Source: an uncultured Eubacteriales bacterium (GTDB lineage Bacteria; Bacillota; Clostridia; Peptostreptococcales; Anaerovoracaceae). From it: a stretch of 64,000 nt of DNA. The notes beneath the pieces were generated by a model. That model was not told where the DNA came from and did no database searches. It saw nothing but the letters and a program-made list of their open reading frames with translations. The DNA lies in the NCBI GenBank assembly GCA_902778565.1, contig CACYYH010000002.1:5659-69658 (forward strand), read 5' to 3'. Below, in pieces: positions 4,280 through 28,924 of this stretch. The translations under genes were made by a program, and so were the position numbers. Position 1 is the first letter of the stretch. Every line of letters begins with the position of its first letter.

Positions 4280-5815
4280 TTATTCCTGAAATATCCGTTC
4301 GTCCATCAGCTTCAGTCCTTCGTCCACTATAGGTGTGAAATCCATAAGATCGAGGATCTGGGTCTGCACATCTATGCCCGGCGCAACCTCTGTCAAATGG
4401 AGCCCATCCTTCCTGAGTTCGAATACACATCTCTCAGTTATGTATTTTACGGGCTGTTTTATTTTTTTTGCATATTCTCCGCTGAAGGTGATCTGTTCAG
4501 CCTTATTTATGAACTTTTTAGCTCTACCTTCATTCAGAACAATGAGTTTGCCGTCGTTGACCTCTATCTTGAGTCCTCCTGCCGTAAATGTGCCGCAGAA
4601 ATAAACCCTTTTGGCATTCTGGGTGATATTAATGAAACCTCCGCAGCCAGCTACTCTGCCTCCGAACTTTGAGACATTTACATTACCTTTCTCGTCTACT
4701 TCAGCTAAACCCAGAAATGCATCATCTATACCTCCGCCATCGTAAAAATCAAACTGATTCGCTTGGTCGATTATAGCCTGAATATTAATTGCTCCGCCGA
4801 ACTGCGGTCCTGCCTGAGGAACACCACCGATACCGCCGGCCTCAACTGTCAGTGTCATATAGTCACCTATGCCCCACTCACTGGCACAAAGGGAAACGTA
4901 TTCCGGTATGCCGATTCCCAGGTTTACTACTGTATCAGGGCTGAGCTCCAAAGCACATCTTCTGCCGATTATTTTTTTCGGACTCATTGGAGGATATTTG
5001 ATCTCTCCCAGTTCTTTGATAAAATCACCTGTCATGGAGCCATCATATTCGCATCCCACACACTGTTCATGCTCTTTCGGATCGTCACAAACCACGATAT
5101 AGTCCACGTATATGCCGGGGATTTTCACAAGTTTAGGATCGCAAAGTTCATCCTCGAGCTTACGCTCTACCTGTACTACTACGATGCCTCCGCAGTTTTT
5201 AGTGGCCTGAGCAGTTGAGAGGACTTCTGTAGTTGTTACTTCTCTTTCCAGAGAGATGTTTCCATAGCGGTCTGCGCTAGTTCCACGCAGGAAACAGATG
5301 TCTATGGGGATCGATTTATAGAGAAGTTTTTCTTCCCCAAGGATATCAACCACTTCTACCAGATCCTCTGTTGTTATGCTGTTAAGCTTACCGCCTTCTT
5401 CTCTTGGATCTACAAAAGTGCCGAGACCCACATGCGTGATAGTACCCGGTTTTCCTGCAGCAATGTCTCGCATAAGATGCGACAGCGTTCCCTGAGGGAA
5501 ATTATACGCTTCGATCTTATTATCTAATGCCATCTGTCCCAGCTTAGGAGCCATATTCCAATGACCGCCTATGACCCTTTTAACCATACCTTCATGGGCA
5601 AAATGATCCGTACCTGAACCATCTCTGTTCCCCTGAGCAGAAGTATGGAACAGAGTCAGATTTCTTGGCTTACCTGTCTCAAGGAATCTTTTTTCAAGGG
5701 CTCCTGTCAGGTTCTCCGGAAGAGCGCACGCCACAAATCCGGATGGAACTATAGTCATTCCGTCTTTTACGAGCTCTGCCGCCTGTTCTTTTGTAATGAA
5801 TTTAGCACATTTCAT
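4280..5815 (-). CDS. Family I acyl-CoA transferase (propionate/acetate CoA-transferase, Pct/YdiF type)
   Basis: 511-aa ORF. The N-terminus FITKEQAAELVKDGMTIVPSGF resembles Pct (..IITADEAAKLIKDGDTV..). Length is typical of the family. Confidence 0.8.
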   Translation of the reverse strand: MKCAKFITKEQAAELVKDGMTIVPSGFVACALPENLTGALEKRFLETGKPRNLTLFHTSAQGNRDGSGTDHFAHEGMVKRVIGGHWNMAPKLGQMALDNKIEAYNFPQGTLSHLMRDIAAGKPGTITHVGLGTFVDPREEGGKLNSITTEDLVEVVDILGEEKLLYKSIPIDICFLRGTSADRYGNISLEREVTTTEVLSTAQATKNCGGIVVVQVERKLEDELCDPKLVKIPGIYVDYIVVCDDPKEHEQCVGCEYDGSMTGDFIKELGEIKYPPMSPKKIIGRRCALELSPDTVVNLGIGIPEYVSLCASEWGIGDYMTLTVEAGGIGGVPQAGPQFGGAINIQAIIDQANQFDFYDGGGIDDAFLGLAEVDEKGNVNVSKFGGRVAGCGGFINITQNAKRVYFCGTFTAGGLKIEVNDGKLIVLNEGRAKKFINKAEQITFSGEYAKKIKQPVKYITERCVFELRKDGLHLTEVAPGIDVQTQILDLMDFTPIVDEGLKLMDERIFQE

Positions 5816-5861
5816 AAATTACTGACCTCTTTTCAAATAGAAATAATCATTTCGTTTCGGA

Positions 5862-6836
5862 TCATCCTACAACCAGGTACTTTTCATCAATTACACCGGT
5901 CATAAGGCCTACCAGGTTTTTTGCTGCCAGCCAGTTGGACGCCTTGAAATTTTCGAGTGTAAAAGGTGTGGTATGAGGTGTAAGTATGCAATGGGGGGCG
6001 CCGATAAGTTTGGAATCCGTGCAGGGTTCCTTATCAAATACGTCTACTGCAGCACCTGCCAGTTTGCCGCTCTCAAGGGCTTCCCTGATCGCCTCTTCAT
6101 CTCCCACCCGTCCGCGGGCAATATTGAAAAGAATGCTGCCGTCCTTCATTTTTCCAATGAAATCTCTGTTTATCAGATAAGTAGTTTCTTCTGTAAGCGG
6201 CACACAAACGCAAGTATAGTCGCTCTCAGCCAGAAGTTCGTCAAGCGGCTTGTAAACAGCGCCGTACTGATCTGCTATGCCTGCCAGTTCTTCTCCATTG
6301 GGATGTTGTCTGTTATATATTATGTTCATTTCAAAAGCGCTTGCTCTCTTCGCTATCTCATGTCCAAGTGCTCCGTAACCCACAATACCCAGAGTCCTGG
6401 TCTTTGCACCCGGCATGAACATACGTCTCCACTCGCCCTTATGCATATATTCGCTCTGGAGATCTACCCTGCGGGCAAAGTACAGGATATATGCCATCAC
6501 GCCCTCGCCGACTGACGATTCTATCGTCCCTCTTGCTCTGGCGACCTTAATGCCATGGCCCCTGCAGTACTCTATGTCCACGCTGTCCAGACCGACTCCG
6601 CGGCGGGAAACGTATTTCAGATTCTTACACGCTTTAAATACAGGTTCCGATGCTTTTTCCAGCGCGTTGATCAACCCATCAGCATCACCTATAGCTTCGA
6701 TCATTTCTTCATCGGTAGTGGATGAACTGAATCCTGCATTGCTCAAGTCAATCACTTCCAGCCCTTGCTCCTGAAGCCATTCTATAACTTCCGGGCTTGG
6801 CCCTGAAAACTCTCTTGCTGTTATTACTACTTTCAT
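5862..6836 (-). CDS. D-isomer-specific 2-hydroxyacid dehydrogenase family protein
   Basis: 324 aa. NAD fold GIVGYGALGHEIAKRA. Also ARGRVGDEEAIREALESGKLAGAAVDVFDKEP. Confidence 0.85.
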   Translation of the reverse strand: MKVVITAREFSGPSPEVIEWLQEQGLEVIDLSNAGFSSSTTDEEMIEAIGDADGLINALEKASEPVFKACKNLKYVSRRGVGLDSVDIEYCRGHGIKVARARGTIESSVGEGVMAYILYFARRVDLQSEYMHKGEWRRMFMPGAKTRTLGIVGYGALGHEIAKRASAFEMNIIYNRQHPNGEELAGIADQYGAVYKPLDELLAESDYTCVCVPLTEETTYLINRDFIGKMKDGSILFNIARGRVGDEEAIREALESGKLAGAAVDVFDKEPCTDSKLIGAPHCILTPHTTPFTLENFKASNWLAAKNLVGLMTGVIDEKYLVVG

Positions 6837-6848
6837 CTTGCGTTCCTT

Positions 6849-8810
6849 TCAGAGTTCAGCTACTGCATTGACAGCCGCTTCAGTGGCTCCATGAATCGTT
6901 CCGGGTGCCTTTGCTGCGTCGCCTATCACAACCGGATTTATCCCTATTTCTTTTAATTCTTCCGCTAATGAATTTACGCTTTTAACACCTACTGCAGATA
7001 CTACCGTATCTACGTTTTTTATCTCTTTGATTTCCCCGTCTTTTTCATATCTTATAACATCATTCTCAACCGATAACACCTTTGCCGAGGTAATGATATT
7101 TATGCCCTTTCCCAGCATCCTTCTTATCATCAGAGGCCTTTCGGAAGTCTTCAGATCCGCTGCGACAGACGGGAGCATTTCTATTACCGTTACTTTGCGG
7201 CTCCTTACGTTGAGGTCATTTACCGGATGCGCCAAAAAATCCGCCGTCTCGCAGCCTACAAGGCCTCCGCCTACCACAACGGTATTCACTCCGCTCATTG
7301 CCTTTCCCTCAAGAGCATCAAAAGATGTGATAAGGTTTGCTGCCCCTTTCAGGAAACCCGGCACTATCGGTTCTCCGCCTGTACATACCAATACGTGGTC
7401 ATAGTTTCTTTCTTTGATTTCTTCTGCTGTGAGAGTACAGTCAGTAGTTATCTTCACTCCATATCTCTCACATTCTTCTATCATATACCTCGTGCCGGCA
7501 GCTATTTCCTGCTTGCATGGAGGAAAAGCCGCCAGGTACATCTGACCTCCAAGACGGTCGCTTGCTTCTATAAGTTCAACGTCAAATCCTCTGTAGGCTA
7601 CATACTTTGCAGCGGTCAAGCCCGCAGGCCCTCCGCCTACCACCAGAACTCGACCGGAAGATTTGTCTCTGCCGTTAATAAGCTCTCTCAATTCGAATTC
7701 TCTTCCTGCTTCCGGATTCATCGTGCACCTTACAGGATTATCAAAGTTTACATTCGATATACAATGATTACAGCCTATACACGGTCTGATCTCATTCTCA
7801 ATACCGTTAAAGGCCTTATTCGGGAACTCCGGATCGCACAGCATGCTCCTTCCCATATAGCAGGCATCTGCTTTCCCCAAAGCAAGGATCATTTCAGCGA
7901 CCCATGGTTCATTTATCCTTCCAATGAAGCCAACCGGGATAGAGACTGCTTCTTTTATTGCCGCCGCTCTTTCCATGTTAAAGCCCTTGGGAGTTCCGTT
8001 GGGAGCAAGTGTCTCCCATGGCGTTGTAAAGGTACCATAGGACATGTGTATCATCGATGCTCCTTCTTCCTCAAATCTCTTTGCGACATATCTGCCATCC
8101 ATGAGGGACTGTCCGCCTTCAAATCCGTCCTCAGCCGACATCCTCATCATTATCGGGAATCCTTCCGGTACTCTGCTTCTGATCTCTCTGAGGACTTCCA
8201 GGGTGAGTCTCAGCCTGCCCTCAAGGTTTCCGCCATAACAGTCGACCCTCTTGTTTTCCATTGGTGAAAGAAAACGTCCCAAAAGACCGTGCCCATGGCA
8301 GCAGTGGATCTCTATCGCGTCGAAACCTGCCTTAACAGCTCTCACCGCTGCTTCACCGAACTTCCTGACTATTAGCTTAAGCTCCTCTATAGTAGCAGCT
8401 CTGGATAACTCCCCTATCGCTCTTGCTTCCAACGGAGATGCCGCGACGGACTGTATACCTCCGTTATATGCAGCTGAAGCGTATGAAGATGGATGCATGA
8501 GCTGTACGCATAGCTTGACATCGTACTTGTGAGCCATATTTGTCAGCTTTTTCAGTTCATCTATCATCCTGTCCTCATAGAGCCCGAGATTATGATACGT
8601 CCCATAATTAGTATTCTCCGAAATCAGGACGTATTCGGTAGTCATGAGTCCCATACCGCCTTTGAGACGAGCCTCATAATATGCAAGCATCTCTTCTGTT
8701 ACGTTAAAATCTTCCCCCGCCAGATGTGATCCCACAGGTGACTGGAAGATGCGGTTTTTGACCACCATATTTCCTATAGTTATCGGTTTGAATAAATTGT
8801 CGTATCTCAT
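6849..8810 (-). CDS. OYE-like FMN/FAD/[4Fe-4S] oxidoreductase (2-enoate reductase / 2,4-dienoyl-CoA reductase family)
   Basis: 653 aa. N-terminal OYE barrel (IEIHCCHGHGLLGRFLSP), Cys motif CIGCNHC, C-terminal Rossmann VVGGGPAGL. Confidence 0.85.
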   Translation of the reverse strand: MRYDNLFKPITIGNMVVKNRIFQSPVGSHLAGEDFNVTEEMLAYYEARLKGGMGLMTTEYVLISENTNYGTYHNLGLYEDRMIDELKKLTNMAHKYDVKLCVQLMHPSSYASAAYNGGIQSVAASPLEARAIGELSRAATIEELKLIVRKFGEAAVRAVKAGFDAIEIHCCHGHGLLGRFLSPMENKRVDCYGGNLEGRLRLTLEVLREIRSRVPEGFPIMMRMSAEDGFEGGQSLMDGRYVAKRFEEEGASMIHMSYGTFTTPWETLAPNGTPKGFNMERAAAIKEAVSIPVGFIGRINEPWVAEMILALGKADACYMGRSMLCDPEFPNKAFNGIENEIRPCIGCNHCISNVNFDNPVRCTMNPEAGREFELRELINGRDKSSGRVLVVGGGPAGLTAAKYVAYRGFDVELIEASDRLGGQMYLAAFPPCKQEIAAGTRYMIEECERYGVKITTDCTLTAEEIKERNYDHVLVCTGGEPIVPGFLKGAANLITSFDALEGKAMSGVNTVVVGGGLVGCETADFLAHPVNDLNVRSRKVTVIEMLPSVAADLKTSERPLMIRRMLGKGINIITSAKVLSVENDVIRYEKDGEIKEIKNVDTVVSAVGVKSVNSLAEELKEIGINPVVIGDAAKAPGTIHGATEAAVNAVAEL

Positions 8811-8833
8811 TTGATCGCTCCTTTACTAAAGGT

Positions 8834-8865
8834 CAGCTCCCTGCCCGGGAATGGACAGGGAGCTG
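8834..8865 (-). other. Intercistronic stem-loop between aldolase and reductase genes
   Basis: CAGCTCCCTG ... CAGGGAGCTG forms a 10-bp stem. No U-tract follows on the mRNA strand. Confidence 0.4.
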
Positions 8866-8889
8866 TTCGATTAAAAATCAAGGAGATTT

Positions 8890-9657
8890 TTACTTAGCTA
8901 TAAGGTCCTTTACCGCCTGAAGACGCTTTTCGCTCTCCTGACGGAAGAAAACCTGGTCGTTCATACATGTTACAAGTTTAAATCCCTGCTTGACTTTAGC
9001 TGCAGCTGCTTCTGCTGTACCTGTCACAATACCGGGAACTATCCCGTATTTATTACATGCGTCGAGTACAGTCTGGATTGCTGCCTGAACTTCCGGATCA
9101 GAGGCAGGCTTGCCATAATCCTGAGACAGATCTGCCGTTCCGATGAAAACACAGTCCAGTCCGGGGGTCTGACATATTTCTTCTATGTTCGCAACTCCTT
9201 TTTGGGACTCGCACTGCATGATTGTATACAGATTCTCGTTTGCCTGCTGCTGATAGTTTTCTATCTTTCCCCAGCGGGGTCCGCGGCCGCCATTGGCTCC
9301 GCGCATTCCAAGAGGCGGGTATTTGATATAGTGTATGATCTTATCAGCCTGTTCTCTGCTTTCGACCATTGGTACCATGATTCCATGGATGCCGACGTCC
9401 AGAAGTCTGGACATCATAGTATAATCATCCGGATCATATACTCTTACAAAAGCAGACATCTCATAGAGTTCTGAAGCCCTGGACATTTCCACCAGAGTTT
9501 CGGTATCAGTCTGAGCATGTTCAGCATCTATGATTATGAAATCCATACCGTTTATGGCAAGGCATTCACAATTCATAGGGGATCCGGATGCAACGAAAGC
9601 ACCAAGCACATAACCGTTCTGTTCCAGACGTTCTCTTGCAAAGCATCTCATTTTCAT
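8890..9657 (-). CDS. HpcH/HpaI family 2-keto-3-deoxy-acid aldolase (copy 1)
   Basis: 255 aa. IIIDAEHAQTD and PLGMRGANGGRGPRWG motifs. RBS AAAGAGG. Confidence 0.8.
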   Translation of the reverse strand: MKMRCFARERLEQNGYVLGAFVASGSPMNCECLAINGMDFIIIDAEHAQTDTETLVEMSRASELYEMSAFVRVYDPDDYTMMSRLLDVGIHGIMVPMVESREQADKIIHYIKYPPLGMRGANGGRGPRWGKIENYQQQANENLYTIMQCESQKGVANIEEICQTPGLDCVFIGTADLSQDYGKPASDPEVQAAIQTVLDACNKYGIVPGIVTGTAEAAAAKVKQGFKLVTCMNDQVFFRQESEKRLQAVKDLIAK

Positions 9658-9669
9658 ATCAGTGCCTCT

Positions 9670-10101
9670 TTATTTATTCTTATACTTTACTTCAAGCTTG
9701 TCGTTCAGTTCAACTACGCCCTCTTCAGCAAGCTTCTGTATGAAAGGTACATATGCTTCTTTAAAGTTAGTACGAGGAGTTCCGAAGATATCCATCTGAA
9801 GGCAAGGGAAATCCGTGTCATGTACATCGATATAATGCTCTACGCCGCCGGGAACTGTTACGAATCCACCGGGGGTCAGGTGATAGCATACTCCGTCTAC
9901 CCAGTAATCACACTCACCTGCAATACAGAAAGCTATCTGCTCTTCGGGATGTGAATGAGGTCTCTTTTCATGGCCGGCCTCTACCAGTCCGATCGTTACT
10001 GTGCAGTCATCAGCTCCCATAGCTAAAGTAACCTGCTTGATACCCTCTCTTAAAGGTCTGAACGGCATATCGTTCCAATTTCCACTCATGATCATTGACA
10101 T
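9670..10101 (-). CDS. Cupin domain protein (copy 1)
   Basis: 143 aa. Cupin metal motif HSHPEEQIAF...GGVEHY. RBS TAGGAGG. Confidence 0.8.
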   Translation of the reverse strand: MSMIMSGNWNDMPFRPLREGIKQVTLAMGADDCTVTIGLVEAGHEKRPHSHPEEQIAFCIAGECDYWVDGVCYHLTPGGFVTVPGGVEHYIDVHDTDFPCLQMDIFGTPRTNFKEAYVPFIQKLAEEGVVELNDKLEVKYKNK

Positions 10102-10150
10102 AATTATATCCTCCTAAATCAAACTTTATTTACTAAAGATAATACTCTGT

Positions 10151-11428
10151 TTAAGCTCCCAAAAGATTCGGCAGGAAAAGAACTATCTGCGGTACGAATG
10201 CTATGAGAAGCGTTACCGCAAGTGCTGCTATGATAAACGGAAGCAGCGGTTTGGAGATCTTTTCAAGCGGGATTTTTGTGATATTTGAAGTAACGAACAG
10301 CGTCATGCCTACAGGCGGTGTAACGAGGCCTATGGTAAGCATGATACAGAACCATACACCGAACTGAACTTCATCCATACCCGCATAGAGTGCCAGCGGC
10401 ATCATAACGGGAGTGAATATCAGCTGAGCTGCTGTAGCTTCCATAGCGCAGCCTACGACGATAAGTATCGCGAACATCATCAGGATGATGATCACTGAGC
10501 TTTCCGTCATGCTCATTACAGCATTCTGGATCATCTGAGGTACATTGGCTACGGCCATACTCCATCCGATAATGTTTCCGAATCCGATGATGATGAAGAT
10601 TCCGGAAATAACAGTGGTGGATCTCATCAGTACTCTGGGAATGATCTTGAAGCTGAACTTTCTGTATATCAGACCTGCCACGATAGCTGCAGCGATAGCT
10701 ACAGAACCTGATTCGGCAGGTGTGAATATGCCGGCAGTGATACCAAATACCATAATGAAAGGTACCAGAAGAGCCGGAATGGCTTTAACAAATTTCTTCA
10801 AAAGATCTTTTCCGTCGAAATGCTCAATACTTCTGGGAAGATTGCGCTTTTTGACGTTAAGACGAATGATGATGATGTAAGCCAGACCGATCAGAATGCC
10901 GGGAATGGCTCCGCCTTCGAACATTGCAGATACCGAAATGCCGGTAAGTACGCTGCAATAGATAAATGTGGTGCTGGGCGGTATTACCGGTCCCAGAACA
11001 CCGGATGCGCATACGAGAGCGGACGAGAAATCCGCGGGATATTTATCACGTACCATTTCAGGTACGACTACGGAGCACAGGATCGCTGCTACAGCATTGG
11101 CAGATCCAAGAATAGCTGACAGGATCATTGCTACGATTACTACCACGTATGCCAGGCCGCCTTTGAACTGTCCTACCAGCGCACGGACGAAATCAATGAG
11201 TTTCTCCGTAACGCCGCTGGCATTCATCAGCTCTCCGGCGATGATGAAGAAAGGAATACAGGTCAGAGCGCTTACGCCCATTCCTGCAAACATTTTCTGA
11301 GTTATAACACCAAAATAGCTTGCGTTACCAATGGTAACAATATGTGTAACGCCGGCAAGACCGAGAACGAAGCATATCGGCATACCGATGATCAGCATTA
11401 AAAGAAATACTGCTACTACTATACCCAT
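10151..11428 (-). CDS. dctM: TRAP transporter large permease
   Basis: 425-aa polytopic membrane ORF typical of the DctM family. Overlaps dctQ by 1 nt. Confidence 0.9.
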   Translation of the reverse strand: MGIVVAVFLLMLIIGMPICFVLGLAGVTHIVTIGNASYFGVITQKMFAGMGVSALTCIPFFIIAGELMNASGVTEKLIDFVRALVGQFKGGLAYVVVIVAMILSAILGSANAVAAILCSVVVPEMVRDKYPADFSSALVCASGVLGPVIPPSTTFIYCSVLTGISVSAMFEGGAIPGILIGLAYIIIIRLNVKKRNLPRSIEHFDGKDLLKKFVKAIPALLVPFIMVFGITAGIFTPAESGSVAIAAAIVAGLIYRKFSFKIIPRVLMRSTTVISGIFIIIGFGNIIGWSMAVANVPQMIQNAVMSMTESSVIIILMMFAILIVVGCAMEATAAQLIFTPVMMPLALYAGMDEVQFGVWFCIMLTIGLVTPPVGMTLFVTSNITKIPLEKISKPLLPFIIAALAVTLLIAFVPQIVLFLPNLLGA

Positions 11429-12030
11429 TATGCTTCACCTCCTTCGGTTCCGGCTTCTGCTGCTTCAACTATTGCCTCAACTGCCGAATCATGAACCTGA
11501 TCGTTTATTACCTCTCCGGCCACGTTCAGTTTCAGATCGTAAGTGCCGTCTTTGAATTTCCTGAAAATCTCATAATAGTTTTCTATTGCAAACAAGACGA
11601 TCATTCCCAGACCTATGATGATAGGCAGATAAGGCCAAACCATTGAGATCTGGAGACCGATGCTGACTTGTTTAGCTACAGAAGGCAACATAACTGTATA
11701 GATAGCATTTCTGAAAACAAAAATCGCGAATGCAAGCGAGATAGTGTTGATCACAAGTTCCCATGCAAGTTTGGCAGGACCTCTGACTCTGTTTCGGATC
11801 AAATCGAATGCAACCAACTCACCTTGACGGAAACATGCCGCGCCGCCTATCATAGCTACCAAAACGATGCAGTAACGAATGAGTTCGTCTGCCCACATAG
11901 ATGAATTGCCAAACAGATAACGTCTGGTTATTTCCATCAAGGAGACAACGACCATGACTCCGATAGTCACAGCGGCAATAACCTTAGCTGCATATTCTAT
12001 TATATCCAGGACCTTATTTACAGCTTTCAT
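11428..12030 (-). CDS. dctQ: TRAP transporter small permease
   Basis: The ORF track starts at 12093, but AAGGAG lies 6 nt before ATG 12030 (MKAVNKVLDII...). Four-TM DctQ-like protein with an acidic C-terminal tail. Confidence 0.8.
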   Translation of the reverse strand: MKAVNKVLDIIEYAAKVIAAVTIGVMVVVSLMEITRRYLFGNSSMWADELIRYCIVLVAMIGGAACFRQGELVAFDLIRNRVRGPAKLAWELVINTISLAFAIFVFRNAIYTVMLPSVAKQVSIGLQISMVWPYLPIIIGLGMIVLFAIENYYEIFRKFKDGTYDLKLNVAGEVINDQVHDSAVEAIVEAAEAGTEGGEA

Positions 12031-12060
12031 AAGAATCTCCTTGAAAAATGATATAACATT

Positions 12061-12096
12061 GGAGTGCCCTTTCTGATTAATCAGCCAGGACACTCC
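12061..12096 (-). other. Long imperfect hairpin between dctP and dctQ (possible mRNA stabiliser or partial terminator)
   Basis: GGAGTGCCCTTTCTGATTAATCAGCCAGGACACTCC, with the central CTGATTAATCAG perfectly palindromic. Confidence 0.4.
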
Positions 12097-12117
12097 TTTT
12101 ACTACTTTTTAAGTCAA

Positions 12118-15212: not shown

Positions 15213-15229
15213 ACATCAAAAAATTTTAA

Positions 15230-20790: not shown

Positions 20791-21552
20791 TCAGAATTCC
20801 AGGTAGTGCGGCGGTAAACCCTCAAGTATATCACTCGTTAAGCTATAGGATGCGATGGGATATCTGAGGCCGTTCTTGCTCATGATCTTCAGTCCTTCCA
20901 ATGCTTTGACCGTATCCTCAGGTGAAAAAGACACTCTTACGTCCGTTTCAGACATGCCGGCGAATTTTTTATCCGCATAGCAAGGGAGTCCAAGCCCGGG
21001 CTTACCGGTGTTAAAAGTCTTGCACCAGCAGTCAGAACATGTGGATTCTCCTGAGAAAGTGAACTGAAATCTCTCATAATCATGCACCTGAAGTCCTCCA
21101 AGAAGCATGAATGCCTGAGCAGGAGTAACGTGGAATACGACTACGTCCGGATCTATCCTTTCAGATACAAGGGGCGAGGCGACAACCGCTATATATTTTG
21201 CCGGTACACATTCAAGTTCTCTGTTATGTGCTTTAGATGCTTCGATATTATCGAACCATACGTTATTGAACATCTCGCCTGAGTACCATTTATCATCCCT
21301 TTCAAACATTCCGTTGATGCCTCTGCAATAATTGGCATGTATGTTTTCCGGCTTGCAGGCACTTGTCCAGTTGAACTGAGCCGCATGGCTTACGATCGTG
21401 CAGGGAGGCATATGCTTTTTATGGATCCTTACCTTTGGAATGGCCATAAGTTCTTCTTCTGTCTCGATCCATTTCATGGCGACCGGCGGGGTGCTGAGCC
21501 TCAAAAGAGATATAAATTCGGGGGCGATTTCTTTCCAATTGTATTTTTCCAT
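20791..21552 (-). CDS. DUF169 domain protein
   Basis: AAGGTGA lies 5 nt before ATG 21552 (MEKYNWKEI...). The ORF-track start at 21561 is GTG. Size of about 250 aa and conserved Cys pattern are typical of DUF169. Confidence 0.75.
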   Translation of the reverse strand: MEKYNWKEIAPEFISLLRLSTPPVAMKWIETEEELMAIPKVRIHKKHMPPCTIVSHAAQFNWTSACKPENIHANYCRGINGMFERDDKWYSGEMFNNVWFDNIEASKAHNRELECVPAKYIAVVASPLVSERIDPDVVVFHVTPAQAFMLLGGLQVHDYERFQFTFSGESTCSDCWCKTFNTGKPGLGLPCYADKKFAGMSETDVRVSFSPEDTVKALEGLKIMSKNGLRYPIASYSLTSDILEGLPPHYLEF

Positions 21553-21657
21553 ATTCTTCACCTTGTGCTTTTAAGTTGAATTTGACTCAGAAGTATATAC
21601 CATTTAAGTCATTTGTGGTTTAAAGAGTCAGTTTTAATATTCACGTACAATAAAATA

Positions 21658-21727: not shown

Positions 21728-21772
21728 ATAAAAAAGCCCCTCGCATTCAGATATTTCCCGAATGTGAGGAGC
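21728..21772 (-). terminator. Intrinsic terminator after the crotonase gene
   Basis: Minus strand CTCCTCACATTCGG-loop-CTGAATGCGAGGGG followed by CTTTTTTATT. Confidence 0.7.
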
Positions 21773-21803: not shown

Positions 21804-22580
21804 TTATTTGTTCTTGAACTCTGCAGGTCTCTTCTCGAGGAATGCTGCCATTCCTTCCTTCTGATCTTCCGTTCCGAAGCACTTAGCGAACCACTTGCTC
21901 TCTGTCTTGACGCCTCCGTCGATATCGAGCTGATAGCCCTCGTCGATGGCCTTCTTGCAGTTAGCTACAGCGATAGGAGCGTTCTTTGTAAAGGAATTCA
22001 TGAGTTCCATTACCTTATCCATGAGTTCTTCAGGAGCAACGAGCTTATCTACGATACCAAGCTCATATGCTTCCTGTGCGCTGATAACTCTTGCGCTGAA
22101 AATCAGTTCCTTAGCTTTGGAAACGCCGATCTTTCTGGGAAGTCTCTGGGTTCCGCCGAAGCCGGGGGTGATTCCCAGTCCTGCTTCAGGCTGTCCGAAC
22201 TTAGCCTTTTCACTGGCTACGATGTAGTCGCTTGTCATGGCAAGTTCGCATCCGCCGCCCAGTGCAAATCCGTTGACGGCAGCGATTACAGGTATGTCAA
22301 GCAGTTCGATCTTTCTGAAAACGCCGTTGCCATAAACACCGAAGTTGAAACCTTCTTCTTCATTCATAACGCTCATAGCGGCAATATCAGCGCCTGCAAC
22401 GAATGACCTTCCTGCGCCTGTTAAGATGAGTCCTCTGATATTCTTGTCTGCCTTGATCTCATCAAGCACTTTATCGAGATCAGCCAGAACCTGATTGTTG
22501 ATAGCGTTCAGCGCCTTCTCTCTGTTGATGGTTACGATAGCGATGGAATCTTTTACTTCATAAATAATGGTCTCGTACAT
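21804..22580 (-). CDS. crt: Enoyl-CoA hydratase (crotonase family)
   Basis: 258 aa. ...GAGRSFVAGADI... and AAVNGFALGGGCELAM are typical short-chain crotonase motifs. Confidence 0.9.
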   Translation of the reverse strand: MYETIIYEVKDSIAIVTINREKALNAINNQVLADLDKVLDEIKADKNIRGLILTGAGRSFVAGADIAAMSVMNEEEGFNFGVYGNGVFRKIELLDIPVIAAVNGFALGGGCELAMTSDYIVASEKAKFGQPEAGLGITPGFGGTQRLPRKIGVSKAKELIFSARVISAQEAYELGIVDKLVAPEELMDKVMELMNSFTKNAPIAVANCKKAIDEGYQLDIDGGVKTESKWFAKCFGTEDQKEGMAAFLEKRPAEFKNK

Positions 22581-22611
22581 TTCTCTTTCTCCTGTTCGAT
22601 TTATATTATTT

Positions 22612-23595
22612 TTATCCTCTTATCAGTCCTGCAAGCTCCGACGGGCTGATCCCGGCCATATATTCGCCAAGGTCCAGCTCGTTAAGTTTATCTTCCAGTC
22701 TACTGTCAAGTATAACACCTTTGAGGCTTTCTTCCAAGTCCTCAATTTCTCGGTTCCCAAAGAAGTCTCCGTAAAATCGTATATCTGCGATCCGTCCGTC
22801 TTTGGCGGTGAGATGCACGGTAACGAGTCCCGCATCGAATTTTTCTTCCCTGGTCATTTCGTATGCAACTGCTTTTCCATAGTTCCATTCCCAGGTGGAA
22901 TACTTTTCATCCCTGAGTCTGTTGATCTCTGCAATATCCGCAGGCGTGAGTTCGTAAGGCTCTACGCTTTCGTCTCCCAGGATATGCGCTTTAAGCGCCG
23001 CCTTAAAAGCCTCCATGCTGATCTTCTCAGGTGCGTGAGCATTTATGGTGGTGACCCGGGACCTAACCGACTTGGAACTCTTCGACTTGAACTTGGCCTC
23101 CTTTACCCTGAGAGCATCGGCCACTTTCTCAAGGTCTGAGTCCAGCATGATGCATCCATGATGCATCACCCTGTCCTTCTTCACGTACTGGGAATTGCCG
23201 GATATCTTCATACCTTCGATCAGTATATCGTTCCTGCCGCTGAATTCGGCGTCCACGCCAAAGCCTTTCAGAGTCTCCACCACCGGCTCAACAAAGACCT
23301 TGAAATTCATGCCTTCAATATCCTGACGGTCCACTATAAAGGTGAAGTTCAGGTTTCCCATGTCATGATAGACCGCACCTCCGCCTGACAGTCTGCGTGC
23401 TACTTTGATGCCCTTCTCATCCACCGCCTTCTGGTTCACCTCTTCAAAGGCATTCTGAAACTTGCCGATGACGATGGTATTGGCGTTCTGCCAGAGCATG
23501 AAGTAGCTTTCATCCTTCGGAAGACGCTCAAAAACATACTCTTCGAGAGCAAGGTTGAAATATGGATCTGTACTGTTGGATTCGATGTATTTCAT
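22612..23595 (-). CDS. lplA: Lipoate-protein ligase A
   Basis: MKYIESNSTDPYFNLALEEYVF... is the usual LplA N-terminus. The ORF-track start at 23643 is GTG and lies inside the promoter described next. Confidence 0.8.
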   Translation of the reverse strand: MKYIESNSTDPYFNLALEEYVFERLPKDESYFMLWQNANTIVIGKFQNAFEEVNQKAVDEKGIKVARRLSGGGAVYHDMGNLNFTFIVDRQDIEGMNFKVFVEPVVETLKGFGVDAEFSGRNDILIEGMKISGNSQYVKKDRVMHHGCIMLDSDLEKVADALRVKEAKFKSKSSKSVRSRVTTINAHAPEKISMEAFKAALKAHILGDESVEPYELTPADIAEINRLRDEKYSTWEWNYGKAVAYEMTREEKFDAGLVTVHLTAKDGRIADIRFYGDFFGNREIEDLEESLKGVILDSRLEDKLNELDLGEYMAGISPSELAGLIRG

Positions 23596-23601
23596 GGTTA
23601 G

Positions 23602-23630
23602 ATTATAACGGCAAATATATGGCAGTTCAA
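23602..23630 (-). promoter_or_regulatory. Sigma-A type promoter placed for a leaderless lplA mRNA
   Basis: Minus strand TTGAAC-N17-TATAAT, then CTAACC, then ATG (23595). No SD sequence precedes this ATG. Confidence 0.5.
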
Positions 23631-23670
23631 GATTCTTTGGCACCCCAAAGAAACGCTGCTCATCCTGTGC

Positions 23671-24090
23671 TTAAATTATGTATTCCTGTCCTTCGCCTTT
23701 TATTACTAGTTCTCCATTTTGGTTGAAGCACTCTGTTCTTACGACCACTCTGTGCTTCTCTTCCAGTTTATCTATAACTTCAGCCCTGGCAGTGATAACG
23801 TCTCCCACAAATACCGGCTTTATAAACTTCAAGGTCTGTCCTGAATAAACATTCCCGAAGGTTGCCTTTGTCATTATAGTCGATATCAGGCCTGCGACCA
23901 TTAACCCCGGAGCGATGACTTTACCGAAACGCGTGGTCCTGGCATAATCTTCATCCACATGGACGGGATTATCATCTCCCATCATTTCTACCCACGTGAT
24001 AATGTCTTCCTTGGTTATCGTTTTGGTGAAAGCATATGTTTCTCCGATATCGATATCGTCCCAACTTTTTATTTTATGAGAATCACTCAT
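23671..24090 (-). CDS. MaoC-like (R)-specific enoyl-CoA hydratase/dehydratase (copy 1)
   Basis: GAGAGGA lies 7 nt before ATG 24090 (MSDSHKIKSWDDIDIGE...). Hot-dog fold motif DDNPVHVD. Confidence 0.85.
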   Translation of the reverse strand: MSDSHKIKSWDDIDIGETYAFTKTITKEDIITWVEMMGDDNPVHVDEDYARTTRFGKVIAPGLMVAGLISTIMTKATFGNVYSGQTLKFIKPVFVGDVITARAEVIDKLEEKHRVVVRTECFNQNGELVIKGEGQEYII

Positions 24091-24241
24091 ACTTAATCCT
24101 CTCTTTCTGAACTGCAAAGTTCGGCTATAGTATAACACATCTCCACCTAAAAAGCTAAACCAGAAAGTGCCTGAAGCGTAATTCGCTTCAGGCACCTTCT
24201 AAATAAGCGTATAGGAAAAAATTTCTTCAGAATTTCTTCTT

Positions 24242-25369
24242 TTAGTCCTCTTCTTTGATCTTCTTTATGGAATCGATCAGTAGCGGAGTTACCTTGAACA
24301 GGTCTCCTACGATACCATAGTCTGCGATCTCGAAGATGGGCGCTGTCTCATTCTTGTTGACAGCTATTATGGTTCCGGATTCCTTCATGCCGGCCTGATG
24401 CTGGATGGCTCCGGAAATACCCAGTGCAACATATACCTTAGGATGTACTGTCTTTCCGGTCTGTCCTACCTGATGGTCAGCTGAAAGCCAGCCTGCATCT
24501 ACTACAGCACGGGAGGATCCTACAACGCCGCCAAGTACGTCTGCCAGTTCTTCTGCCAGCTTGATTCCGCCCTCAACATCCTTTGAGATACCACGTCCTA
24601 CAGAAACGATGTAGTCTGCGCCGATGAGGTCCACCAGCTTCCTTGCAGCCTTTACGACTTCCAGTACTTCTGTCTGGAAATCTGCTTCGGAAAGTTCAAA
24701 TGCAGGGTGGATGATCTCGCAGTCATGAGGTGTATCCAGCACTACCTTCTTCATAACGCCGGGACGTACAGTTGCCATCGACGGTCTGAATCTCGGGCAG
24801 ACGATGGAAGCCATAAGGTTTCCGCCGAATGCAGGACGGGTCATCTTCATATCCATATTGATATCATGTTCTTCGCCAAAAAGTTTGATGACGCCAAGTC
24901 CGGAAATTCTTTCTTCTGTCAGTGTGGATGCTTCTCTTAAGAAGTCCTTGTATGTCGGCATATCGATGTCAAGGTGTGTGCAGTCTGCACAAAGTCCGGT
25001 GTGAAGTCTGGCAGCGCATCTGGGTGCCAGGTCACGTCCGATGTTGGAAGCTCCGAAGATCATGATCTCGGGCTTGAATTCCTGAACTGCTTCGCAGATG
25101 ATCTTGGTATATCCCTCTGTGGTGTAGTTCTTAAGGAAAGGGCTGTCATAAACGTAAACCTTGTCTGCCCCGTATTTGCCCAGATCCTGAGCCAGTTCCT
25201 CGATGTTATCGCCAAGGAGAATTCCACAAAGTTCAACGTTCAGTTCATTTGCCAGTTTTCTTCCTTCTGAAAGAAGCTCATAGGAAGTGGGCATCATTTT
25301 GCCCTGACGCTGTTCGCAATATACCCAAACATTTTTGAAGCTTGCTATGTCTCTGCTATCGTAAGCCAT
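24242..25369 (-). CDS. etfA: Electron transfer flavoprotein alpha subunit
   Basis: 375 aa. ...RPAFGGN... and GISGAIQHQAGM are present. An extra segment of about 32 aa sits between LDID and TRPAFGGN. Confidence 0.9.
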   Translation of the reverse strand: MAYDSRDIASFKNVWVYCEQRQGKMMPTSYELLSEGRKLANELNVELCGILLGDNIEELAQDLGKYGADKVYVYDSPFLKNYTTEGYTKIICEAVQEFKPEIMIFGASNIGRDLAPRCAARLHTGLCADCTHLDIDMPTYKDFLREASTLTEERISGLGVIKLFGEEHDINMDMKMTRPAFGGNLMASIVCPRFRPSMATVRPGVMKKVVLDTPHDCEIIHPAFELSEADFQTEVLEVVKAARKLVDLIGADYIVSVGRGISKDVEGGIKLAEELADVLGGVVGSSRAVVDAGWLSADHQVGQTGKTVHPKVYVALGISGAIQHQAGMKESGTIIAVNKNETAPIFEIADYGIVGDLFKVTPLLIDSIKKIKEED

Positions 25370-25385
25370 TTCAGTTCTCCTTTCG

Positions 25386-26186
25386 TTAAATTATGTGCTT
25401 GTTGGCAAGAATGCCTGCAAGCTCGTCAGTTGTTTCCTTCCCATTTCCTTTAAGCATAGTGCCTGCGCCCTTCAGAGGAGGGGTAAAGGAGGTGAGAATG
25501 TTGGTCGGGGAGCCCTGAAGTCCGATGGTAGACTTGTCCATTAAAGGATGATCCTTTAATTTCTCATAGTCGAATACCTGGAGCGGCTTCTCATAAGTAT
25601 TGAGTATATCCCAGACGTTCATGAATCTGGGTGTATTGAGTTCCTTGATACAGGTTACGAGACAAGGTGTCTTTACCTTGAGCATCATATATCCGTCTTC
25701 AAGAATCCTCTTGATGGTAAGTGTATTTCCATCCTTCTTGATCTCGCCTGCATAGGAAACCTGTGGAAGTCCAAGTTTCTCGGCGATCTGAGGTCCGACC
25801 TGCGCGGTATCTCCGTCGATAGCCTGACGTCCGCTCATGATGATGTCATCCTCATCGATTCCATAAGTATCGATGGCAGCTGCCAGGATCTGGGATGTTG
25901 CGTATGTATCAGATCCTCCGAATTCTCTTCCGGAAACCAGAATGGATTCATCAACGCCCATTGCCATCAGTTCTCTCAGCATTCCTTCTGCAGGAGGAGG
26001 TCCCATGGTTATAGCTACTACCTTGCAGCCAAGTTCATCCTTGAGATCCAGCGCTGCTTCAACAGCGTTGAGGTCATCGGGGTTGATGATTGTCTGCATG
26101 GAAGCACGATTAAGGGTTCCATCCGGATTGACTGCGATCCTTCCGGAGGTATCAGGAACCTGTTTTACAGTTACTATAATCTTCAT
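25386..26186 (-). CDS. etfB: Electron transfer flavoprotein beta subunit
   Basis: 266 aa. N-terminus MKIIVTVKQVPDTSG is typical of EtfB/FixA. Confidence 0.9.
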   Translation of the reverse strand: MKIIVTVKQVPDTSGRIAVNPDGTLNRASMQTIINPDDLNAVEAALDLKDELGCKVVAITMGPPPAEGMLRELMAMGVDESILVSGREFGGSDTYATSQILAAAIDTYGIDEDDIIMSGRQAIDGDTAQVGPQIAEKLGLPQVSYAGEIKKDGNTLTIKRILEDGYMMLKVKTPCLVTCIKELNTPRFMNVWDILNTYEKPLQVFDYEKLKDHPLMDKSTIGLQGSPTNILTSFTPPLKGAGTMLKGNGKETTDELAGILANKHII

Positions 26187-26198
26187 CTGTGCGCCTCC

Positions 26199-27338
26199 TT
26201 ATAATCCCATATTTGCCGAAATAACTATTCTCTGAACTTCCGAGGTGCCTTCGTAGATCTCTGTGATCTTAGCATCTCTCATCATTCTTTCTACAGGATA
26301 GTCATTGGTGTATCCATATCCGCCGAACATCTGAACGACCTTTGTGGTGGTCTTCATTGCATGCTCGGAATTGAACAGTTTAGCCATAGCAGCATCCTTG
26401 GTGTATCTCTGTCCTGCAGCCTTCTTCAGTGCCGCCTGATAGATGAGGAGTCTGCCTGCTTCGCATCCCAGTTCCATATCAGCCAGTGTGAACTGTGTGT
26501 TCTGGAACTTGGATATGGGCTTGCCGAACTGTACTCTGCCCTTGGTGTAGTTGATGGCTTCTGCCAGAGCTCCCTCTGCGATGCCGAGGGCCTGAGCAGC
26601 GATTCCGATACGGCCTCCGTCAAGAGTAGCCATAGCGATCTTGAAGCCTTCGCCTTCTTTTCCAAGAAGGTTTTCCTTGGGAACGATGCAATCCTGGAAT
26701 ACTATTTCTGCTGTAGGAGATCCGTGAAGTCCCATCTTGACCTCATGCTTTCCTACGGAGAATCCGGGGAAGGTATTCTCTACTATGAATGCGGAAATGC
26801 CCTTTGTGCCCTTGGACTTATCTGTCATGGCAAATACAACGAACACTTCTGCTACGTATCCGTTAGTGATAAATATCTTGGATCCGTTCATTACGTAATG
26901 ATCCCCTTCAAGTACGCATTCAGTCTGTCCCTTGGATGCGTCAGAGCCTGCGTTAGGCTCAGTAAGGCAGAATGCTCCTACCTTGTGTCCTTTAGTAAGC
27001 ATAGGCAGATATTTTGCCTTTTGTTCTGCAGTACCATAAGTAAGGATGGGATCGCAGCAAAGTCCGTTATGAGTTGCAAGGATGTCAGCTGTGGATGCGC
27101 ACTGTTTAGCAAGCTCCTCAACTGCGATGGCAGCTGCGAGAGGATCTGCTCCGGCTCCGCCGTACTCTTTGGGTACGCACATGCCCATGATTCCGACATC
27201 AAACAACTTTTCTATGGTTTCCCTCGGATACTCTGCAGTACGGTCTGTTTCTGCAGTGATTGGCTTTACTACACTTTCGGTAAACTCAGCCATCATCTTA
27301 CGAACCAGTTTATGTTCGTTGCTAAGGTTAAAATCCAT
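26199..27338 (-). CDS. Acyl-CoA dehydrogenase (butyryl-CoA dehydrogenase-like)
   Basis: 379 aa. ...CLTEPNAGSD... and a C-terminal ...ITEIYEGTSEVQR motif. Confidence 0.9.
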   Translation of the reverse strand: MDFNLSNEHKLVRKMMAEFTESVVKPITAETDRTAEYPRETIEKLFDVGIMGMCVPKEYGGAGADPLAAAIAVEELAKQCASTADILATHNGLCCDPILTYGTAEQKAKYLPMLTKGHKVGAFCLTEPNAGSDASKGQTECVLEGDHYVMNGSKIFITNGYVAEVFVVFAMTDKSKGTKGISAFIVENTFPGFSVGKHEVKMGLHGSPTAEIVFQDCIVPKENLLGKEGEGFKIAMATLDGGRIGIAAQALGIAEGALAEAINYTKGRVQFGKPISKFQNTQFTLADMELGCEAGRLLIYQAALKKAAGQRYTKDAAMAKLFNSEHAMKTTTKVVQMFGGYGYTNDYPVERMMRDAKITEIYEGTSEVQRIVISANMGL

Positions 27339-27377
27339 TTTTATCTCCTCTTCTTGTTTAAATTATAAAGAATACAG

Positions 27378-28856
27378 TTATTCTTCTATTCCAACTATGT
27401 CTTTCACCAGCTGCTTCTTGCCTTGGATGTTGCCCTGTCTCTGGATCATGATCCTCTGTGCCTGAGGGGAGCCTGCTCCGTGCAGTGACTCTGTCCTGTA
27501 GCCTACGGCTGCTGCTCCCAGGCAGATGTTCTCCAGGAACCTGAAGACCTTCATCCTGTCCATGGTGTCGCACTTGCCGTTTCCTACAAAGAATTTATGG
27601 CAAAAGTCTCCTATGGTCTCTCCTTCTCTTCCTACCACCAGGTCGGAATTGAAGTCAACGTTGCTCGGCATCGTTACCATAAGCCCTCCTGCGATGTCTT
27701 CTGCAAGTCTCACGATCTCATAAGGGAATCTGGTGATGTTCTGCTTGCATACGTTGGCGAGCAGCAGGTCGATGATGTAGGATCCTGACTTAGTAGGATG
27801 TCCCTCTGCTGAGCATGCTATTCCGCAGCTGTAAAGGGTCTCGTTAAGATGTGTCATCTCGATGAGCTTATCCTTTACTGCAGATGCTTTCTCAACTCCG
27901 TTATACTCTGCTGCAAGCGCTGCGGCTCCGATCACTACGTCGCCTACTCCTACCTTGCAGCCGCCGTAAGATTGTCTGTGGAAGCCTGCGAATCTCTCTA
28001 CCAGCATCCCTGCAAAGTCATATTCTCCGTTCATGAACACGTACTCATTGGGAATGAATACGTCATCGAAGACTACTAACGCTTCCTGACCTCCGAACTT
28101 GGGGTTGCCTACGTCCATGCCGCCGCCTTCTTCCAGCTTACGTGTATCACATGACTGTCTTCCGTATACCATGAACAGGCCTTCTGCATCACTTGGACAT
28201 GCGAAGCATACTGCATAGTCCTTGTCGTCCTCTCCCATGGCTATGGTAGGCATGACTATATGCCAGTGTGAGTTGATGGATCCGGTCTGATGGCACTTAG
28301 CTCCTCTTACCACGATGCCATCCTCTCTTACTTCCTTTACTCTCAGGAACAGATCCGGATCGTCCTGTGCGTGAGGAGCTCTGGAACGATCTCCCTTGGG
28401 GTCTGTCATGGCTCCGTCCACCACAAGGTCCTCGTTCTGGACCATGATCAGGAACTTCTTGAATCTCTCGAAGTAGTCCGTTCCGTACTTCTCGTCGATC
28501 TCGAAGGTGGTGGAATATACTGCGTTGAATGCGTCCATTCCAACGCATCTCTGGAAGCAGGATGCGGTCTTCTGTCCCAGAAGCCTCTGCATCTTTACCT
28601 TGTTTTTCAGATCCTCAGTTGACTGATGGATGTTGGAGAAACGGTTGATCTTCTCTCCTGTTAAGTGTGACTTTGCTGTCATCAGATCCTCATACTGAGG
28701 GTCCTGAGCAAGCTCATATGTCATGGCCACGCAGTTGATGGATGGTCTGATCATGGGATGATCCACCCAGTTCTCTATCTTCTCGCCGAACATGTACACT
28801 CTCGTGTTCAGTTTTCTTAAGCTCTCTATGTACTGAGCTCCTGTCATTAATGCCAT
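27378..28856 (-). CDS. 4-hydroxybutyryl-CoA dehydratase / vinylacetyl-CoA isomerase family protein (AbfD-like)
   Basis: 492 aa. N-terminus MALMTGAQYIESLRKLN...VYMFGEKI and its length are typical of the AbfD/HpaB family. RBS AAAGGAAA. Confidence 0.8.
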   Translation of the reverse strand: MALMTGAQYIESLRKLNTRVYMFGEKIENWVDHPMIRPSINCVAMTYELAQDPQYEDLMTAKSHLTGEKINRFSNIHQSTEDLKNKVKMQRLLGQKTASCFQRCVGMDAFNAVYSTTFEIDEKYGTDYFERFKKFLIMVQNEDLVVDGAMTDPKGDRSRAPHAQDDPDLFLRVKEVREDGIVVRGAKCHQTGSINSHWHIVMPTIAMGEDDKDYAVCFACPSDAEGLFMVYGRQSCDTRKLEEGGGMDVGNPKFGGQEALVVFDDVFIPNEYVFMNGEYDFAGMLVERFAGFHRQSYGGCKVGVGDVVIGAAALAAEYNGVEKASAVKDKLIEMTHLNETLYSCGIACSAEGHPTKSGSYIIDLLLANVCKQNITRFPYEIVRLAEDIAGGLMVTMPSNVDFNSDLVVGREGETIGDFCHKFFVGNGKCDTMDRMKVFRFLENICLGAAAVGYRTESLHGAGSPQAQRIMIQRQGNIQGKKQLVKDIVGIEE

Positions 28857-28907
28857 AGTGTTTCCTTTCTTTTATTATGATCGCAATTCATATCACAATT
28901 AAACTAC

Positions 28908-28924
28908 AGCAAGATCTATGCCAA
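28908..28924 (-). promoter_or_regulatory. Sigma-54 (-24/-12) promoter of the AbfD-like/ACAD/Etf cluster
   Basis: Minus strand TTGGCATAGATCTTGCT with exact spacing, about 50 nt upstream of ATG 28856. Confidence 0.8.

Follow-up and report, generated by a model that had tools for sequence, protein, structure and literature searches.

The stretch analysed here, hereafter the window, comprises 64,000 nucleotides of contig CACYYH010000002.1 from an uncultured Eubacteriales bacterium (assembly GCA_902778565.1) and contains an island of approximately 25 kb in which poorly known genes surround the gene for a single sigma-54 enhancer-binding protein (EBP). The genes were mapped by Pfam and NCBIfam scans, terminator scans and direct reading, and their coordinates are collected in Table 1. 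The island opens at its left end with a nine-gene operon, which comprises DUF6282, dctP, dctQ, dctM, a 143-aa cupin, an HpcH/HpaI aldolase, an OYE/BaiCD-like Fe-S flavoreductase, a D-2-hydroxyacid dehydrogenase and a 511-aa CoA transferase. It continues through a gene for a 292-aa protein (unk292), a cupin (cupin158) with a second HpcH-type aldolase, the EBP, a transporter, a beta-keto acid cleavage enzyme (BKACE) and a DUF169 protein to an AbfD-like operon at its right end. We read the island as a catabolic regulon dependent on sigma-54 (SigL) and built around one activator with PAS, AAA+ and HTH domains, an interpretation that the sequence makes quite probable.

The window was scanned on both strands (128 kb); about 10.6 kb of it lies outside long open reading frames (ORFs), 3.2 kb in the island and 7.4 kb elsewhere. 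A first-pass annotation had listed six -24/-12 promoters here and a seventh with an off-spacing. All six were found in the sequence at positions correct to within 1 nt, and the seventh, TGGTATGGTTTTTGCT, has five T residues rather than six and hence a canonical GG-N10-GC arrangement. The island contains seven correctly spaced promoters (P1 to P7), not six and an odd one, with the GG and GC doublets 10 nt apart (TGG-N9-TGC) at every site. The exact pattern TGGYAY-N5-YTGCW occurred seven times in the window against an expectation of 0.53, a number reached by none of 100 shuffles; six of these matches were island sites and the remaining one, at 49336(+), lay inside an ORF. A 22-column promoter matrix built solely from 44 intergenic, correctly oriented promoters of loci outside the window gave the seven island sites 18.6-23.5 bits (training range 16.1-25.8), compared with 12.4 bits for the next best match on either strand, which lay in coding DNA. 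All seven sites fell within the 3.2 kb of non-ORF DNA in the island. The matrix scan that the first-pass annotation had proposed as a check, run on this window, thus confined the matches to the island spacers and gave none in the 7.4 kb of non-ORF DNA elsewhere, a background comparison that covers one 64-kb window. Start codons were corrected for unk292, cupin158 and DUF169 (15151, 15303 and 21552) before distances were taken; the C of the -12 GC lay 47-108 nt upstream of the start codon, which revises the 50-105 nt given earlier and leaves the reported orientation of the promoters intact.

The seven sites might instead resemble -24/-12 promoters by chance or as relics within AT-rich spacers, with the genes read from sigmaA promoters, and a few 9/12 sigma70-like matches do overlap the spacers. 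This is contradicted by the excess of exact-pattern matches, by the 6-bit gap between the seven sites and the next match, by the empty non-ORF DNA outside the island, by the presence of an intact EBP, and by the retention of promoter positions and even of non-consensus variants among species with EBP identities of just 47-76%. We regard look-alikes as very improbable, and that explanation as close to refuted. SigmaA promoters as alternative drivers were rejected after a scan of the spacers for sigmaA-like promoters, in which matches around P1, P5, P6 and P7 were absent or weak.

Table 1 Features of the island and promoter pairs of related loci. Positions are those of the window unless a locus number (L) is given. 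Promoter scores are from the matrix built on loci outside the window, and palindrome scores from the expanded enhancer matrix.
Feature	Position	Strand	Details
P1	14170-14185	-	TGGCACGAAATCTGCA, 18.8 bits; nine-gene DUF6282-TRAP operon
P2	15197-15212	-	TGGCATAACAATTGCT, 21.0 bits; monocistronic unk292
P3	15231-15246	+	TGGTATGGTTTTTGCT, 20.4 bits; cupin158-HpcH; TGGTAT variant
P4	18631-18646	+	TGGCATATAATTTGCT, 21.3 bits; Mem_trans (AEC family) transporter gene
P5	19760-19775	+	TGGAACAACTTTTGCA, 18.6 bits; monocistronic BKACE; non-consensus -24 (TGGAAC)
P6	21659-21674	-	TGGCATAAGATTTGCA, 23.5 bits (window maximum); DUF169; preceded by ech terminator
P7	28908-28923	-	TGGCATAGATCTTGCT, 21.4 bits; abfD-like-acd-etfB-etfA
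EBP gene	16703-18184	-	PAS, Sigma54_activat AAA+, AAA_lid, HTH_50
P1 palindrome	14226-14241		AATTCACTTTTGAATT, 18.8 bits
P1 palindrome	14257-14272		AAGTCATAAATGACTT, 20.6 bits
P7 palindrome	28955-28970		degenerate; weaker than 29009-29024
P7 palindrome	28985-29000		degenerate; weaker than 29009-29024
P7 palindrome	29009-29024		degenerate; 13.3 bits
DUF169-leader palindromes	21573-21640		two to three copies; downstream of P6, +41 to +93 from TGG
P1 operon, nine genes	4280-14087	-	Pfam; intrinsic terminator 4215-4239 at end
unk292 (292 aa)	14273-15151	-	start 15151
cupin158 and HpcH/HpaI-type aldolase (second HpcH)	15303-16600	+	cupin start 15303; terminator 16637-16666
112-aa Cys-rich ORF	18293-18631	-	C-x7-C-x2-C-x2-C; upstream of EBP gene; sigmaA-like promoter 18672-18700(-)
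Mem_trans (AEC family) transporter	18734-19675	+	
BKACE	19838-20698	+	
DUF169 protein	20791-21552	-	true start ATG 21552
ech terminator	21730-21769		upstream of P6
maoC-lplA-ech	21804-24090	-	past etfA terminator; extended -10 TGtGtTATACT
etfA terminator	24160-24202		19-bp stem; closes P7 operon
P7 operon	24242-28856	-	AbfD-like (HpaB family), acyl-CoA dehydrogenase, EtfB, EtfA
Short-gap promoter pair	L089 12482-12532		
Short-gap promoter pair	L092 4172-4245		
Short-gap promoter pair	L094 5156-5215		
Short-gap promoter pair	L100 9873-9932		
Short-gap promoter pair	L102 1162-1254		
Short-gap promoter pair	L107 9850-9921		
Short-gap promoter pair	L110 9056-9137		

The EBP has an AAA+ domain that matched Sigma54_activat (PF00158) with an E value of 3.8e-72 and carries Walker A (GDSGTGKE) and Walker B (ILLDEIGE) motifs together with an exact GAFTGA sigma-54 contact loop; PAS_9 and HTH_50 domains span residues 26-145 and 442-489. 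The first-pass annotation had called this the only EBP in the window, and we likewise found no other EBP signature within the 64 kb. SigmaA-like promoters lie upstream of the EBP gene at 18230-18272(-). Among the named NCBIfam equivalogs the best match was PrdR, with 379.6 bits against a cut-off of 795, and all other named EBPs were also below cut-off. A scan of a genome collection with the EBP returned 80 unrelated EBPs (L005-L084) through the generic AAA+ peptide FGHEKGAF, and no orthologue.

Related loci were obtained by choosing proteins 56-76% identical to the EBP and comparing their contigs for genes and promoters, and by using cupin158, which shows 80-97% identity within that first set, as a metagenome query. 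The query added 21 loci from rumen and human-gut samples, which were annotated by local BLAST and scanned for promoters. Together they include at least 15 distinct rumen or human-gut contigs and the isolate Oscillibacter valericigenes Sjm18-20. The EBP-linked loci L085, L087, L089-L092, L094, L096-L112 and L116 (EBP 47-76% identical) carried most of the same genes, with sigma-54 promoters ahead of them. The genes concerned are those of the EBP, the cupin-HpcH aldolase pair, an unknown protein of about 290 aa, BKACE, DUF169, DUF6282 and the TRAP (tripartite ATP-independent periplasmic) transporter; every contig of the first set had several genes from a list that also includes both cupins, an OYE-like reductase and Acd/Etf. 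The locus itself was present in identical form in several rumen metagenome assemblies and is therefore no assembly artefact. Judged by GuaA, the nearest named relatives of the window organism are Oscillospiraceae MAGs, at an identity of only 74%.

Promoters recurred before the same genes. Counterparts of P1 preceded DUF6282 operons in L091, L094 and L100, and counterparts of P2 preceded unk292 homologues in L087, L089, L091, L092, L094, L096, L100, L102, L103, L107, L110 and L116. The TGGTAT variant of the -24 element stood ahead of the cupin gene in the window, L092, L095 and L107, and TGGAAC stood ahead of BKACE in the window, L092, L094 and L100 (TGGTAC in L102). DUF169 had its own promoter, corresponding to P6, in L085 and L101, and the counterpart of P7 was TGGCATTGATTTTGCA in L100, ahead of the same operon (AbfD 95% identical). 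P4 is without an orthologous comparison, the transporter gene being found at that place only in the window species. The promoters were closely packed in some loci: L100 had six in 14 kb (before the abfD operon, HpcH, the unknown gene, cupin-DUF169, BKACE and DUF6282-TRAP) and L094 had five in 7 kb. In the O. valericigenes locus (L116) an EBP 51% identical to that of the window accompanied DUF169-HpcH, cupin158 and a BKACE-Mem_trans-AbfD-Acd cluster, with four sigma-54 promoters; because it adjoins the unk292 homologue OBV_33460, this EBP is presumably OBV_33450. The first-pass annotation had proposed that DUF169, BKACE, cupins, an amidohydrolase-like protein and AbfD-like genes form one co-regulated system. 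Related loci keep most of the island genes and have promoters before them, and since such phylogenetic footprinting backs the core reading, co-regulation of the whole set is supported as a prediction.

The related loci also differed in ways that concern individual genes. Cupin158 (15303-15779+) was 77-97% identical across the L085-L115 loci, with the exception of L113 (63%), in loci where the EBP was 47-76% identical and the unk292 neighbour approximately 30-75%; the apparent constraint on this small enzyme of unknown function is unusually strong. Two BKACE subtypes were seen. The window type, 89-98% identical in L100 (11411-12271; 98%) and L102 (2738-3598), was monocistronic behind a weak TGGAAC or TGGTAC -24 element. 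The second, about 30% identical (e.g. L096 13076-14005), headed a DUF6282-TRAP operon elsewhere, behind a consensus TGGCAT. In variant loci, some of them from human gut (L104, L105, L108, L109, L114 and L115), unk292 was the first gene of an operon that includes abfD and lies behind one sigma-54 promoter, the operon of L109 also carrying acd and etfBA; the EBP in loci of this type was only 47-48% identical and 7 kb away, and no pattern-matching promoter was found ahead of the cupin in the six.

The first-pass annotation had derived no convincing shared activator site and singled out only the TGCAAAAT and ATTTTGCA copies at 28950-29020. A candidate, AAKTCA-W4-TGAMTT, can be derived, and these copies proved to be degenerate members of it; the palindrome was detectable at only three of the seven units. 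A Gibbs run combined with inspection pointed to AAGTCA-W4-TGACTT, a palindrome of 16 bp whose half-sites vary as AATTCA, AATGCA and GATGCA. An initial matrix whose seed sites included some from the window was circular and was dropped; it also matched the reverse complement of P5, ATGCAAAA, which resembles a -12 box. Replacement enhancer matrices were trained on other loci only. The top three window matches of a non-window matrix (14257-14272, 14226-14241 and 21606-21621) all fell in promoter-bearing intergenic regions. Top matches in loci outside the training set were likewise intergenic, with centres at -48 to -126 from sigma-54 promoters, and in eight held-out loci 10 of the 14 matches of at least 13 bits lay at -220 to -35 from a sigma-54 promoter, a zone that makes up 4% of the sequence. 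An expanded 22-site matrix gave six window matches of at least 9 bits, two at P1, two in the DUF169 leader, one at P7 and a weak one inside the EBP gene. The centres of the two P1 palindromes stand at positions -48 and -79 relative to the TGG and are thus separated by 31 bp, and palindromes were often arrayed at a spacing of about 19-32 bp.

We take AAKTCA-W4-TGAMTT to be a candidate enhancer of the island EBP, which presumably binds it. Alternatively, the palindrome could be the operator of another DNA-binding protein, a repressor or global regulator. Its position downstream of P6, and its occurrence directly before DUF169 in other loci (L094 4552-4599, L100 10484-10531 and L102 1785-1800), where the cupin-DUF169 spacer has no promoter, would suit an operator, as would its dissimilarity to the TGT-N10-12-ACA type of many clostridial EBPs (PMC6615313). 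In the same survey, however, 15 EBP groups had non-TGT motifs. The palindrome moreover lies at the classical enhancer distance (centres -48 to -126), in arrays spaced 19-32 bp apart and at many promoters in many species, and no regulator gene other than that of the EBP is conserved across these loci. We consider an operator of another protein unlikely and favour an enhancer of the EBP.

Several observations weigh against the regulon interpretation and the enhancer assignment within it. The motif emerged from a Gibbs sampler (12-mer solution) and from inspection by eye before it was tested on held-out loci; the underlying Gibbs run was also partly contaminated by conserved coding sequence. Searches of 23 intergenic regions for 6-8-mers and for palindromic and non-palindromic dyads gave nothing above shuffles. 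The held-out enrichment (binomial P ~1e-11) is an optimistic figure that ignores the AT-richness of intergenic DNA. The palindrome was found at only three of the seven units (P1, P7 and the DUF169 leader), and at P6 it is downstream of the promoter. None was detected within 200 bp of P2, P3, P4 or P5, and a Gibbs search of the non-coding DNA of eight short-gap pairs of the P2/P3 type returned only the cupin ribosome-binding site (RBS), GAAAGGAG. None of the island enzymes reached an NCBIfam equivalog cut-off, so the substrate is a guess. Finally, no RpoN box was present within the 64-kb window. For O. valericigenes Sjm18-20, sigL is listed as OBV_07640 (Table S1) alongside four EBPs including OBV_33450 (PMC6615313, Tables S1 and S2), and at least one organism with the regulon is therefore reported to have sigma-54.

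P2 to P5 deserve separate treatment, because without a palindrome their tie to the island EBP is drawn from co-localisation and conservation alone. The TGG ends of P2 and P3, which stand back-to-back, are 18 bp apart (15197-15246). Similar gaps of 19-61 bp were present in at least seven other loci (L089, L091, L092, L094/L100, L102, L107 and L110), and these short-gap pairs too had no palindrome within 200 bp. The corresponding gap is long (129-307 bp) in L087, L096 and L103, and here the palindrome lies between the two promoters. EBPs can in general activate from downstream or remote sites via looping. P2 to P5 may accordingly be served by looping from the sites at P1, P6 or P7, or by unrecognised sites, and the short-gap pair leaves the sigma-54 field with a minor mechanistic question, namely where the activator binds.

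The same gap in the evidence would be explained if the promoters, though real, were divided among at least two activators, the local EBP acting at P1, P6 and P7 and another EBP encoded elsewhere at P2 to P5; the four EBPs listed for O. valericigenes (PMC6615313) would suit this reading. Against such a division, the EBP gene has the P2/P3 pair as its immediate neighbour in most loci examined, the related loci share no second conserved regulator gene, and the long-gap pairs carry the same palindrome between their promoters. We give a second activator a small chance and retain a single EBP as the predicted regulator of all seven promoters.

In the model that we favour, the EBP would be made from its own sigmaA-type promoter, would sense a small-molecule substrate or intermediate through its PAS domain, and would assemble on AAKTCA-W4-TGAMTT palindromes. 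ATP hydrolysis and the GAFTGA loop would then open closed complexes of the sigma-54 holoenzyme at the seven promoters, on the supposition that one EBP serves all. P1 would provide TRAP uptake and six enzymes, P2 the GalM-fold protein (unk292; see below), P3 the cupin and HpcH-type aldolase, P4 an AEC family transporter, P5 BKACE, P6 DUF169 and P7 a 4-hydroxybutyryl-CoA dehydratase-like enzyme with acyl-CoA dehydrogenase and Etf.

The transcription units were delimited as follows. No convincing internal terminator was found in the P1 operon by the terminator scan. The genes maoC-lplA-ech are probably a separate unit that depends on sigma-54 only via read-through, since the etfA terminator, an extended -10 and an RBS stand before ATG 24090; their order is the same in L100. 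The count of about 25 genes in the first-pass annotation falls to 19 in sigma-54 units, or 22 with read-through, because the terminator and the sigmaA-like -10 part etfA from maoC-lplA-ech. The product of lplA is a lipoate-protein ligase, yet the island holds no gene for a lipoyl protein. Upstream of the EBP gene, the 112-aa Cys-rich ORF, whose start codon is overlapped by the first base of the divergent P4, gave no family match and has no clear RBS in the window; it also occurs beside the 76%-identical EBP of the closest relative (L093 43-381).

An Rfam scan gave no match inside the island, and folding of the leader RNAs was unremarkable (z-scores -1.7 to +0.8). The left edge of the island is marked by a cobalamin riboswitch (RF00174, 113.7 bits, 3941-4155(-)) just past the terminator of the P1 operon; it lies directly 3' of a perfect sigma70-type promoter at 4166-4195(-), TTGACA-18-TATAAT with a TG extension. 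At the other end, an ORF at 29038-29472(-) covers no more than the C-terminal portion of an ABC-transporter ATPase, maybe truncated or frameshifted, and stops a short way upstream of the P7 enhancer region.

We examined the island proteins for indications of a pathway. Unk292 had no Pfam, NCBIfam or PDB sequence match. Its predicted structure (predicted local distance difference test score, pLDDT, 91) is a beta-sandwich of the galactose-mutarotase-like type, and Foldseek matched it to 1lur, 4rnl and 1ns4 (E 7e-13, probability 1.00, TM score 0.70-0.76); we predict that it has the fold of the galactose mutarotase/aldose 1-epimerase (GalM) superfamily. The unk292 family comprised 28 clusters among 5.8 billion sequences searched, and its named members were all from Oscillibacter, including OBV_33460. 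The cupin showed weak similarity to KdgF and BacB, and the HpcH aldolases were nearest to GarL and HpaI. The TRAP system is of a carboxylate transporter type, and its DctP matched many TRAP binding proteins without a pointer to the ligand. The P7 operon resembles the branch from 4-hydroxybutyryl-CoA through crotonyl-CoA to butyryl-CoA. PDB sequence searches gave no match for DUF6282 or DUF169, no literature was found on DUF6282 (PF19799), and none of relevance was found that combined BKACE with DUF169 or BKACE with an aldolase and TRAP.

Given the GalM fold, the KdgF-like cupin and the GarL/HpaI-like aldolases, the substrate is possibly a sugar-acid-like carboxylate, a suggestion made with low confidence. 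Such a carboxylate would be taken up and broken down to pyruvate and a C4 unit that enters the butyryl-CoA branch and is fermented to butyrate. More broadly, and tentatively, the island may encode an undescribed anaerobic pathway of Oscillospiraceae-like rumen and gut Clostridia, in which DUF169, DUF6282, a rare GalM-fold protein, a conserved cupin, HpcH aldolases and BKACE lead into the 4-hydroxybutyryl-CoA-to-butyrate branch, with P2 and P3 activated from remote or promoter-downstream sites and no proximal enhancer; we hold this combined proposal to be possible, with the balance somewhat against it. Five protein families that lack a known or assigned function would be joined here in one conserved co-regulated unit of rumen and human-gut bacteria, a unit that probably ends in butyrate-type fermentation. 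With the regulon also in the cultured and completely sequenced O. valericigenes Sjm18-20, its substrate and regulatory logic are directly testable.

Several known systems resemble parts of this arrangement. The nif cluster of Klebsiella likewise has its EBP gene, nifA, within a compact cluster of about 23 kb that contains some seven sigma-54 operons and divergent promoter pairs. It differs in belonging to another phylum, in the GAF sensor and TGT-N10-ACA enhancer of its regulation, and in being biosynthetic. Divergent nif promoters leave room for enhancers between them, unlike P2 and P3 of the island, which are only 18 bp apart. XylR and DmpR of Pseudomonas are also ligand-sensing one-component EBPs that control catabolic operons through -24/-12 promoters and upstream palindromes; they differ in their V4R/XylR_N sensor, in their dependence on integration host factor (IHF), in usually serving one or two promoters, and in governing aerobic aromatic pathways. 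Among enzymes, Kce, which cleaves 3-keto-5-aminohexanoate in lysine fermentation, shares its fold and family with the island BKACE (best PDB match 2y7d, E 1.7e-59), but BKACE reached only 292.7 bits against the Kce equivalog cut-off of 382, and none of the lysine-fermentation genes kamA, kamDE, kdd and kal was found in the island.

The closest comparison is with the Clostridiales survey of Nie, Dong and Yang (2019; PMC6615313), the one systematic account of sigma-54 regulons in this order that turned up in our literature searches, which described 39 EBP groups, with 65% of EBPs controlling one operon and the rest two to six, and enhancers of the TGT-N10-12-ACA type for many EBPs and distinct non-TGT motifs for 15 groups. 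Its regulons of one-component PAS EBPs (DioR, CrbR, XanR and PrdR) have activators of the same architecture, in which one PAS domain is combined with an AAA+ domain bearing GAFTGA and with an HTH at the C terminus. They also share the promoter consensus TTGGCAT-N5-TTGCT, the co-localisation of targets with the EBP gene, multiple upstream enhancer sites, and fermentative or catabolic targets that include operons of the abfD, bcd and etfAB type. The supplement of that survey contains OBV_33450 in its EBP table only (search terms OBV_33450 and OBV_334), apparently with no reconstructed regulon. The seven units of the island lie just above the range of two to six operons. The density that the first-pass annotation called unusual is thus so in relative terms and is not unprecedented, the nif cluster being comparable. 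The island palindrome departs from TGT-N10-12-ACA, and its centres lie approximately 70-150 bp from the expected start site, whereas those of the survey are mostly 100-250 bp upstream of the promoter. Finally, the gene set of the island (cupin158-HpcH, GalM-fold protein, BKACE, DUF169, DUF6282 and TRAP) matches none of the 39 groups. The regulatory principle is familiar, and the predicted regulon is a new sigma-54/EBP group outside those described, for which a promoter matrix and an enhancer motif that can be tested are now available.

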